Shown one piece after another: positions 34,776 through 36,152 of a stretch of DNA of 64,000 nt; position 1 is the stretch's first letter, and each line of letters starts with the position of its first letter. This stretch comes from an uncultured Candidatus Saccharibacteria bacterium (GTDB lineage Bacteria > Patescibacteriota > Saccharimonadia > Saccharimonadales > Saccharimonadaceae): the NCBI GenBank assembly GCA_964585155.1, contig CAZPCQ010000001.1:8070-72069 (forward strand). The letters run 5' to 3'. The translations under genes and the position numbers were made by a program. The notes beneath the pieces were generated by a model. The model worked only from the letters and a program-made list of their open reading frames with translations. It was not told the origin of the DNA and did not search any database.

Positions 34776-36152
34776 ATGAAAACAACCCACAATGAGCCTA
34801 AAAGCCTCTCGGCAGCGACCTTCGCGACTAACGAGGAGCGAACAGAGCGAACTAGCCCCCGTAACGAATCTCGCAGGAACCCGAGACAAGAAAGCGCCCG
34901 CGCTTTCTTACGAGGTGACGCCAGAGAATCTGAGCGTAGCGAAGATGGGCGGCGTGAGCATGCGCAGAGAGAGGCGATAGGCTCATCGGAAAAGGTTGGT
35001 TACGACGTCCTCATCGTCGGCGCCGGTATTTTCGGGCTCACTATGGCCGAGCGTCTCGCTGGCGGCCTCGGCAAAAAAGTTCTCCTCATCGACAAACGCA
35101 ACCATATCGGCGGCAACTGTTACTCTGAGTTCGACGAAACTACCGGCATCGAATGCCACAAATACGGCGCTCACCTTTTTCACACTTCCGACCAGCGCGT
35201 CTGGGAATACGTTAATCAGTTCACCGCTTTTACTCACTACATTCACAAAGTTTACATCACTCATAAAAGCGAAGTCTACCCGATGCCGATCAACCTCGGC
35301 ACCATCAATCAATTCTTCCACGCCGCTTATACGCCTGACCAAGCCCGCGCCCTCATCGCCAGCCAAGCCGCCGACGCTCCCAAAGTCCCCACCAACCTCG
35401 CCGAGCAGGGTATCTCTCTCATCGGCAAACCACTTTTCGATGCTTTCATTAAGAATTACACTGCTAAGCAATGGCAAACTCCCGCCGAGGAATTGTCCCC
35501 CGAAATTATCAAGCGCCTCCCTGTCCGGTATAATTACGACAATCGCTATTTCAATAACACTTATGAGGGGCTGCCCGCCAATGGCTACGAAGCCTGGTTC
35601 CAAAATATGATCAACGCTTGCGGCGATAATCTTGAGGTTCGCCTCGGCGTCGATTACTTTACTGATCCGGAGCTCCAAAAACTCAAAAATACTGATATTC
35701 TTACCATCTATACCGGCCCGATCGACAAATTTTACGATTATAAATTCGGTGAGCTGAAATGGCGCAGTATCGATTTGGAAAAAGAAGTTCTCGATGTCGA
35801 CGATTTCCAAGGCTGTCCAGTAATGAATTACGCCGATCTTGACGTCAAGTTCACCCGCATTCACGAGTTCAAGCATTTCCACCCCGAGCGCACCAGCGGC
35901 GCTTACGCCGAGGGCTCTGGCAAAACCGTCATCGTCCGCGAATATAGCAAGACCTGGACCCGCGAAGACGAACCCTACTATCCTGTCAACACCGCCGAGG
36001 ATCGCGCCAAGTTGCAAAAATACCAAGACCTCGCTCACGCCGAGCAGAATGTTATTTTTGGCGGCCGCCTCGGTGAGTACGCTTATTATGATATGGATAA
36101 AACTTTCGCTTCCGCTCTCGCGAAATTTGACGAACTCAAAGAAAGATTCTAA
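34776..36152 (+). CDS. glf: UDP-galactopyranose mutase with a ~70-aa N-terminal extension
   Basis: DVLIVGAGIFG, HIGGNCY, HKYGAHLFHT, EPYYPVN, GRLGEYAYYDMD; RBS AAGGAGG. Confidence 0.95.
   Translation: MKTTHNEPKSLSAATFATNEERTERTSPRNESRRNPRQESARAFLRGDARESERSEDGRREHAQREAIGSSEKVGYDVLIVGAGIFGLTMAERLAGGLGKKVLLIDKRNHIGGNCYSEFDETTGIECHKYGAHLFHTSDQRVWEYVNQFTAFTHYIHKVYITHKSEVYPMPINLGTINQFFHAAYTPDQARALIASQAADAPKVPTNLAEQGISLIGKPLFDAFIKNYTAKQWQTPAEELSPEIIKRLPVRYNYDNRYFNNTYEGLPANGYEAWFQNMINACGDNLEVRLGVDYFTDPELQKLKNTDILTIYTGPIDKFYDYKFGELKWRSIDLEKEVLDVDDFQGCPVMNYADLDVKFTRIHEFKHFHPERTSGAYAEGSGKTVIVREYSKTWTREDEPYYPVNTAEDRAKLQKYQDLAHAEQNVIFGGRLGEYAYYDMDKTFASALAKFDELKERF

Follow-up and report, generated by a model that had tools for sequence, protein, structure and literature searches.

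The glf gene (34776–36152, + strand) of an uncultured Candidatus Saccharibacteria bacterium carries a long palindromic DNA element between its start codon and the first motif of the encoded enzyme, UDP-galactopyranose mutase (Glf). The gene lies on a 64,000-nt stretch of contig CAZPCQ010000001.1 (assembly GCA_964585155.1), which is called the window below; coordinates without a locus identifier refer to it. The closest species representatives of this organism are metagenome-assembled genomes from the gut. The locus raises the question of what this element is and how an enzyme gene copes with it. A first-pass annotation had described a palindromic element inserted in frame at the N-terminus of the mutase and had drawn an analogy to the Rickettsia palindromic elements (RPEs). 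We consider it likely that the element (34792–34986) belongs to a family of palindromic, structured repeats from Saccharibacteria (~190 nt), and that it is translated as a disordered tail of Glf and tolerated as a selfish or neutral insertion.

A palindromic element at the 5′ end of glf

The glf product has 458 aa and matches the Pfam domains GLF (3e-77) and NAD_binding_8 (5e-20). The palindrome covers 195 nt, corresponding to 65 codons. Its ends are set by perfect 9-mer complementarity, ATGAGCCTA at 34792–34800 pairing with TAGGCTCAT at 34978–34986. The termini that had been annotated (GAGCCTA-aaa-GCCTCTC and GAGAGGC-ga-TAGGCTC) are present letter for letter as a closing repeat of 16 bp, GAGCCTAaaaGCCTCTC (34794–34810) versus GAGAGGCgaTAGGCTC (34969–34984), and extend outward to this 9-mer. 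The left closing arm (34792–34810, + strand) reads ATGAGCCTA-aaa-GCCTCTC and the right one (34969–34986, + strand) GAGAGGC-ga-TAGGCTCAT. These termini are unique in the 64 kb: the pattern GAGCCTA-N(0–6)-GCCTCTC has two sites, both of them closing arms, with none expected from 100 shuffles.

When folded as RNA, positions 34785–34995 reach −80.6 kcal/mol, compared to −63.0 ± 4.1 for 200 dinucleotide shuffles (z −4.3); 0/200 shuffles were as good. Enclosed by the closing arms are, on the + strand, a hairpin H1 (34821–34842, UUCGC-loop-GCGAA), the motif CCCGTAACGA (34858–34867), and a larger hairpin, termed arm B (34865–34930). Arm B consists of a UCUC/GAGA basal stem, a 5′ box GCAGGAACCCGAG, a 10-bp hairpin, and a 3′ box CGAGGTGACGCC. 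The 10-bp stem is perfect (AAGAAAGCGC / GCGCTTTCTT, 34888–34909, + strand) and is the internal hairpin, written with CCCG between its arms, that had been noticed before; it is devoid of a U-run and is not called as a terminator on the + strand. Downstream, GCGTAGC (34934–34940, + strand) is the remnant of a hairpin C, which in this family is typically capped by a GNA triloop with a C-G closing pair. A direct repeat had suggested a 79-nt internal duplication in the element, and this was rejected as the similarity extends over 20 nt only.

The composition of the region differs from that of the gene body, as the first-pass annotation had stated (G-rich versus C-rich). The GC skew is +0.15 to +0.21 at 34850–35049 versus −0.2 to −0.47 in the body of glf, and the strand is purine-rich. 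The window as a whole is strand-asymmetric (C 18257 versus G 11699 on the + strand), and the purine- and G-rich insert stands out against it.

Start codon and encoded tail

A Shine-Dalgarno sequence AAGGAGG (34762–34768, + strand) is found directly 3′ of the stop codon that ends the ABC ATPase gene upstream, at a spacing of 7 nt from the ATG at 34776. The same TAA-AGGAGG-ATG layout occurs in the orthologous loci L002 and L003. A translation start downstream of the element was looked for and not found. There is no in-frame ATG, GTG, or TTG between ATG 34776 and the Rossmann motif YDVLIVGAG, and the sole near-cognate codon, ATA 34977, lacks a usable spacing to a Shine-Dalgarno-like sequence. With ATG 34776 being the single upstream start, functional Glf must be translated through the element.

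No stop codon interrupts the glf frame across the element, and the net length added is divisible by three. On the + strand, two of three frames run through without a stop, and any given frame is open in about 9% of element shuffles. The peptide encoded by the element, NEPKSLSAATFATNEERTERTSPRNESRRNPRQESARAFLRGDARESERSEDGRREHAQREAIGSS, directly precedes YDVLIVGAG and corresponds to the R/E/S-rich extension that had been annotated ahead of the GAG dinucleotide-binding motif. AlphaFold2 modelled residues 1–73 with a pLDDT of about 30 and without secondary structure, while the Rossmann core reached 90+. Glf is thus predicted to carry a disordered, R/E/S-rich tail of about 63–65 residues.

Relatives of the tail peptide were not found among 5.8 billion proteins. 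The frame-2 peptide of the element had one match in the same kind of search, P0241, a repetitive protein that is not related to it. The element family escapes protein searches because the frames differ and the copies have diverged. None of the RNA-seq runs searched for the glf element sequence had a match.

Glf orthologs and decay of the insertion

Alignment of Glf orthologs, the first check that had been proposed, revealed that the extension is absent from the closest ones (90% identity), which begin with MAKTTKTTTINSPDV, as well as from others, which begin with MNYDV. It is absent from 80/80 Saccharibacteria species representatives. Their Glf N-termini carry 0 to about 65 low-complexity residues, which are mutually unrelated in sequence. 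Because the Glf N-terminus is hypervariable in the clade, it would be a tolerant place for an insertion. Arm B was not detected at the glf 5′ ends of 82 other Saccharibacteria loci.

One ortholog, P0031, encoded at locus L001 (77% identity), carries a remnant. There, the first ~75 nt of the extension are homologous at the DNA level and the remainder is gone; a covariance model reads L001 as the glf element minus its central 105 positions. The presence of this remnant in a more distant ortholog implies that the insertion predates this species or was transferred. In addition, a glf variant from run X6 skips 34868–34946 and has one added base, resulting in a net change of −78 nt with the frame kept. 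As judged from these sequences, two relatives of the glf insertion are missing precisely the conserved core and have yet stayed in frame, so that the copy appears to be decaying by in-frame core deletions in related strains.

The repeat family and its conserved core

In metagenome runs that contain this genome, many short contigs match inner pieces of the element at 80–100% while having unlike flanks. Among the Saccharibacteria loci that were fetched, BLASTn detected a match in L031 (7863–7946, 78% over 88 nt, E 4.3e-8). This copy is intergenic, between convergent genes and 2.7 kb from glf. The complete L031 element has 197 nt, a long closing stem, and a fold z of −10. It shares CCCCGTAACGAATCTCG.AGGAACC, GAGGTGACGCC.GAGAATCT, and GCGTAGC with the glf copy, and the intervening stems differ by compensatory changes. 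Such changes also occur in H1, which is kept in L031 and in the L001 remnant.

The search for further copies, likewise proposed beforehand, proved productive. A model built from the glf and L031 copies uncovered more cores in L016, L019, and L020, all intergenic. Arm B has three copies in the window and four in related glf loci (gut copies 57–61 bits), and about 90 in metagenome loci. The metagenome copies were collected with a degenerate two-box pattern, which has 107 metagenome contig matches, about 88 of them with a hairpin between the boxes. The other about 19/107 matches are chance hits in GC-rich coding DNA without a hairpin and were excluded. The resulting covariance model, R2, has 97 matches in 88 metagenome loci, with 62–87 bits for typical copies; the glf copy scores 44.1 bits (E 1.3e-9).

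Arm B is a covarying hairpin with conserved boxes (GUAGGAGCCGAG / CGAGGCGACGCC). Alignment of 55 distinct sequences yields a hairpin of 23 pairs, in which 91.9% of the cells are paired versus 39–50% in slid controls. The covariation score is 0.578 versus 0.10–0.17 in controls, and 19/23 pairs are changed on both sides. The basal stem, which is outside the search pattern, still shows CG, UA, AU, and GC pairs. The boxes (GUAGGAGCC-GAG / CGA-GGCGACGCC) form a GCC/GGC helix between tandem G.A/A.G pairs. The 5′ side of the hairpin is A-rich and the 3′ side U-rich; triloops predominate in arm B and in adjacent small hairpins, often GNA with a C-G closing pair. This structure could act as RNA or as single-stranded DNA.

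A full element thus has a copy-specific closing stem with outer GAGC...GCTC, a small hairpin followed by CCCGTRACGA, arm B, and a short GNA-triloop hairpin. The family is mostly intergenic, with many copies beside tRNA genes, and some copies are intragenic. Many are located where terminators are expected, straight after tRNA genes or stop codons. One arm B copy (L132:189–251) is located directly upstream of the 5′ end of a 23S rRNA gene.

Rfam 15 has no match to the glf copy, the L031 copy, the tRNA-linked copies, or window positions 51700–52560 (gathering score; E ≤ 1 to 10), and weak snoRNA-type Rfam matches were dismissed as noise. Group I introns, hammerhead and other ribozymes, k-turn, sarcin-ricin loop, and integron attC were dropped because their defining motifs are absent upon consensus comparison by eye. 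A strict DNA pattern retrieved nothing from JGI metagenomes or viral contigs, nor did a relaxed core pattern from viral contigs. Full-text literature searches, including exact motif strings, returned no account of this repeat family.

Copies within other genes

Arm B copies within long open frames were screened for, and two clear cases were identified, in L104 and L125. The L104 copy (566–756) is located in valS, which codes for valyl-tRNA synthetase (ValRS). It has 191 nt with a perfect closing repeat of 20 bp and adds about 61 residues between positions 204 and 211 of Thermus thermophilus ValRS (1gax). The L125 copy (2564–2749, 186 nt, z −7.8) is located in a gene for a P-type ATPase. Both match the architecture of the glf copy, with closing stem, small hairpin, CCCGTRACGA, arm B, and triloop hairpin; the motif CCCGTAACGA of glf has the form CCCGTGACGA in the valS and ATPase copies.

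ValRS from Saccharibacteria has three insertion hot spots, one ahead of YSIVMPPPNANG, one ahead of IVSTTRPET, and one following NISRLIQSIVDE. They hold 0–60 residues rich in R/E/S/D/G/T, and each of them occurs both filled and empty among orthologs, with clean empty sites in P0129, P0130, P0139, and P0137. The source records of the valS hits give Saccharibacteria as the organism. According to the DNA alignment, valS inserts start with GAGCTC/GAGCTT and end with GAGCTC/AAGCTC, which the closing terminus of the glf copy (GAGCCT...AGGCTC) resembles. L193 (site 1) and L104 (site 2) share one element type (ELENN.IEG...N.IISSS), the inverted repeat of which differs by compensatory double changes (AATGTCATT/AATGACATT versus AATACCATT/AATGGTATT). 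An ASPVTTGAS-type peptide recurs among some valS copies only. Across genes, the family is read in differing frames and orientations, and all intragenic copies encountered lack stops and keep the frame.

The window itself contains a second in-frame palindrome of 132 nt (41905–42036, + strand) with a 24-bp closing stem and without arm B (fold z −6.9). It is part of the gene for a 552-aa protein (40520–42178, minus strand), where it is oppositely oriented and falls in the N-terminal region, and the spanning open reading frame (ORF) remains open. It resembles the valS site-1 element of L192 (local score 39 versus a maximum of 25 in 500 shuffles), and its similarity to the glf element is weak (p about 0.02). 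CCCGTRACGA has two matches in the window versus 0.18 expected, and both are in in-frame elements (the second at 41975–41984).

Some observations concern the valS assemblies. L104:23–3130 is a single ORF of 1035 aa, in which the N-terminal 600 aa of ValRS are followed by the C-terminal half of a P-type ATPase. The junction is an insert-like segment (SISKHCAGANSHFHNGH...CEPSTLRN), and a similar segment is present at valS site 1 in P0123. This ORF most likely is a chimeric low-coverage assembly across a shared repeat. The contigs of L191, L192, and L193 all end within valS, and several database entries for Saccharibacteria ValRS are labelled "partial".

Interpretation and alternative explanations

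The recurrence in unrelated genes and the filled and empty sites among orthologs suggest the following scenario. The element would have been inserted a few codons downstream of the conserved glf start, and the ribosome would read it, being stop-free and frame-preserving, as an N-terminal tail ahead of the Rossmann fold. Copies within genes would survive only where they are stop-free, have a net length that is a multiple of three, and hit a tolerant place. Selfish or neutral persistence is most likely, rather than a role as a functional part of the enzyme.

Several points weigh against this scenario. Mobility is deduced from presence and absence and from the one element type at two valS sites. 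Filled and empty sites come from different species (~77–90% protein identity), making the exact junctions uncertain. At valS site 1 (empty in L191, filled in L192 and L193), no target-site duplication is visible, the junctions being blurred by species differences. No transposase, reverse transcriptase, integrase, TnpB, or TnpA recurs among the neighbors of the about 88 loci; the recurring neighbors are locus-specific housekeeping genes only. The closing repeat of the glf copy is common to no other copy examined, its score of 44 bits is below the 62–87 bits of typical copies, and it was itself among the 55 training sequences of R2. The presence of the tail in the Glf protein is predicted from sequence, and the AlphaFold2 model, built on an alignment of only 17 sequences, is poor outside the core. 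Finally, the strong covariation of arm B suggests that the family functions at the level of RNA or single-stranded DNA, and the glf copy could retain this function.

The last point leads to the alternative which survives best, although we regard it as unlikely: the element might be kept for a role in the glf mRNA, in translation, read-through, or stability of glf and the downstream glycosyltransferase gene, the peptide being a by-product. A very stable structure that starts 16 nt past the AUG and includes a terminator-like hairpin would fit such a role, as would the family-wide structural selection on arm B and the many copies at expected terminator positions. However, exactly this core was deleted in two independent relatives with the frame kept, the hairpin of the glf copy is without a U-run and is not a called + strand terminator, and the 82 other Saccharibacteria glf loci manage without the element.

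It is rather improbable that the tail serves the protein as a functional segment, for example a charged disordered linker for localization or for contact with the ABC exporter or glycosyltransferases, with the palindromic nature of its DNA being incidental to how it arose. Low-complexity tails of 10–65 aa are frequent at Glf N-termini in the clade, and the adjacent ABC ATPase also has a variable N-terminal extension. The clade tails are mutually unrelated, though, and this one has no relatives among the proteins searched; it is predicted to be disordered and belongs to a family that is read in differing frames between genes.

Even less credit can be given to the idea that the element escapes translation, by a non-canonical start downstream of it or by being skipped by the ribosome (translational bypassing) or by RNA processing. 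The closing stems would join the flanks, as in bypassed or excised inserts. Against this, no ATG, GTG, or TTG precedes the GxGxxG motif and ATA 34977 is unsuitably spaced. The fact that intragenic copies are open and in frame, which would be needless under bypass or excision, and that derivatives differ by in-frame deletions, points to translation rather than splicing or bypassing.

An ordinary lineage-specific low-complexity extension, with palindromes arising by chance or local template switching and no repeat family behind it, would agree with the hypervariable N-terminus and with the failure of BLASTn to find a second copy of the glf element in the window, but is hardly tenable in view of the homology to the intergenic L031 copy, the significant covariance model matches, a closing repeat and fold beyond chance, and the CCCGTRACGA motif shared with the second in-frame element.

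A subfamily linked to tRNA genes

Among the 107 metagenome loci, 69 have a tRNA gene on the same strand ≤400 nt upstream of the core, mostly at 63–92 nt from it. Arm B follows 80/101 tRNA genes in motif-bearing loci, a count that is biased by how the loci were found. At least one of these contigs, L145, belongs to Saccharibacteria, its nusA being 72% identical to that of the window.

In about 40 of the 69 loci, the unit ends in an exact copy of 18–22 nt of the 3′ end of the neighboring tRNA, CCA included; 28 further loci have a shorter exact repeat or none. The modal length of the copy is 18 nt, corresponding to tRNA positions 59–76, and the 35 distinct units analyzed cover 14 tRNA species. 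In 31/35 units, a segment upstream of arm B is paired with the first 8 nt of the copy (mean 7.46/8 pairs versus 5.96 for mismatched loci). The units, of about 135 nt (e.g., L108:704–838, L147, and L159, within loci L084–L190), fold like a cloverleaf, as a four-way junction from which an ...NCCA tail extends single-stranded (L108, z −8.5). A −10-like box precedes many tRNA-linked units, as read by eye only. The copies in L087, L088, and L149 begin at the tRNA CCA and use the CCA in the basal stem.

Retroviral primer-binding sites have 18 nt, with the boundary set by the stop of reverse transcriptase at m1A58. The 58/59 boundary of the tRNA copy matches this stop, a resemblance which may serve as a lead only. 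Together with the CCA, the boundary might reflect RNA-mediated copying, in which reverse transcriptase on mature tRNA stops at m1A58, a scaffold-plus-guide RNA directed at tRNA genes, or a tRNA-like 3′ tag. We tentatively, and with considerable doubt, propose that the glf insert is a stray member of an undescribed element class, the canonical form of which would be a tRNA-gene companion in Saccharibacteria, with palindromic derivatives having spread from it into intergenic DNA and, when stop-free, into genes.

Other elements and genes in the window

The two additional arm B copies in the window, which BLASTn had missed, were found with the covariance model with filters off. They are located at 52145–52213 (− strand, R2 47.0 bits, E 2.1e-10) and at 52239–52322 (+ strand, enlarged hairpin, R2 26.3 bits, E 9.5e-5), and form an inverted pair in an intergenic spacer of 800 nt upstream of tRNA-Met. 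This spacer (51738–52554) also has a strong hairpin at 51757–51881 with arms of 18 bp, for which Rfam finds nothing.

An identical 30-nt sequence (GGCCCCGCGGAAGGGGTGGGAGTGCAAGCC) is present at 14177–14206 and 62398–62427, in two different palindromic elements. One of these (14067–14267) has a perfect inverted repeat of 20 bp and a z of about −9. The other (62265–62524) is just upstream of a DnaK-like start (by eye) and has an arm B variant of the L019 type (GGATAGCGA...GAGCGACGC). AT-rich palindromes of 150–220 nt with arms of 16–24 nt, apparently intergenic, are found at 40175–40322, 18354–18524, 59969–60169, and 12717–12933.

Relatives keep the gene order around glf (ABC2 permease, ABC ATPase, glf, family-2 glycosyltransferase). 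In the ABC exporter ATPase (381 aa), the N-terminus is extended by ~140 aa (33616–34050); this extension is K/N/S/E-rich with VEN/VDN-type repeats and encoded at ~35% GC. The orthologs have 297–370 aa, indicating that the N-terminus is variable there too.

Implications

If the glf insert has been assigned correctly, the colonization of genes in frame by palindromic repeats would recur beyond Rickettsia, in the unrelated, ultra-small, host-dependent Saccharibacteria of the Candidate Phyla Radiation, and such repeats would reach even essential enzymes such as ValRS. A known kind of element, the in-frame palindromic repeat, would here occur in another phylum and stem from a family with an RNA-like covarying core. 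Such repeats may explain unalignable charged inserts in some Saccharibacteria proteins (Glf, ValRS), and the arm B covariance model could be used to mask or annotate such inserts. The repeats may also break assemblies and give rise to chimeric contigs such as L104, which may account for the valS contig ends and the "partial" ValRS entries. The exact copies of tRNA 3′ ends raise the question of RNA-mediated or guide-like processes in reduced bacteria.

Comparison with known systems

The tRNA-linked subfamily, and only this one, resembles tRNA integrative elements and retroviral primer-binding sites in having a direct repeat of the tRNA 3′ end including CCA. It differs in that only ~160–180 nt separate the repeats, an integrase is lacking, and at least 14 tRNA species are used instead of one. 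In addition, the 5′ strand of the unit pairs with the tRNA copy, which closes the cloverleaf-like fold.

Repetitive extragenic palindromic sequences (REPs) and the related BIME and REPIN arrangements are imperfect palindromes with a GTAG head, mobilized by RAYT transposases and often located at the 3′ ends of genes. To our knowledge, REPs have 20–40 nt and are essentially never coding. The GUAGGAG box in arm B, the intergenic copies, and the inverted pair 52145–52213(−) / 52239–52322(+) are reminiscent of them. However, GTAGG is here part of the internal loop of a hairpin of 65–75 nt inside a unit of ~190 nt.

Repeats that resemble MITEs (miniature transposable elements with inverted repeats), such as Correia, ERIC, BOX, RUP, and SPRITE, are small, non-autonomous, hairpin-forming, and mostly intergenic, with some in-frame fusions (PMC10969869). 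Similar to these, the family has terminal inverted repeats of 16–24 bp, and the GAGC...GCTC ends are common to the window copy, L104, L192, and L193. SPRITE resembles a rho-independent terminator (PMC10969869), and so does the top of arm B. No target-site duplication is evident at valS site 1, where the junctions are blurred, and no transposase or parent insertion sequence was seen near the about 88 loci. In addition, the inverted repeats are copy-specific beyond GAGC...GCTC and show compensatory changes, which indicates selection on pairing and not on a transposase-binding sequence.

RPEs are palindromic repeats of Rickettsia which occur in intergenic regions as well as in frame in unrelated and even essential genes, without destroying the protein; their inserts add a surface peptide, and each RPE family is reported to encode a conserved peptide (PMC10969869). 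The analogy drawn in the first-pass annotation stands with respect to how the elements behave, in that they recur in frame in other genes. It does not extend to family membership, which is unlikely: a conserved peptide was not found for the glf copy, and what is conserved here is a covarying hairpin with fixed internal-loop boxes. The host is from Saccharibacteria and one subfamily is tied to tRNA genes. We thus consider common descent with RPE-1 to RPE-10 unlikely, the likeness being one to the RPE description, in a different host phylum. Nevertheless, this likeness covers several traits. The 195-nt glf copy falls within the range of a palindrome of ~100–200 bp with a stable hairpin from a reduced, host-dependent bacterium. 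Several copies per genome, intergenic and intragenic, are represented by three arm B copies and one related in-frame element in 64 kb. As with RPEs, insertions are in frame in unrelated genes, namely glf, valS (three sites), the P-type ATPase gene, and the gene for the 552-aa protein, with orthologs that exist without the insert.

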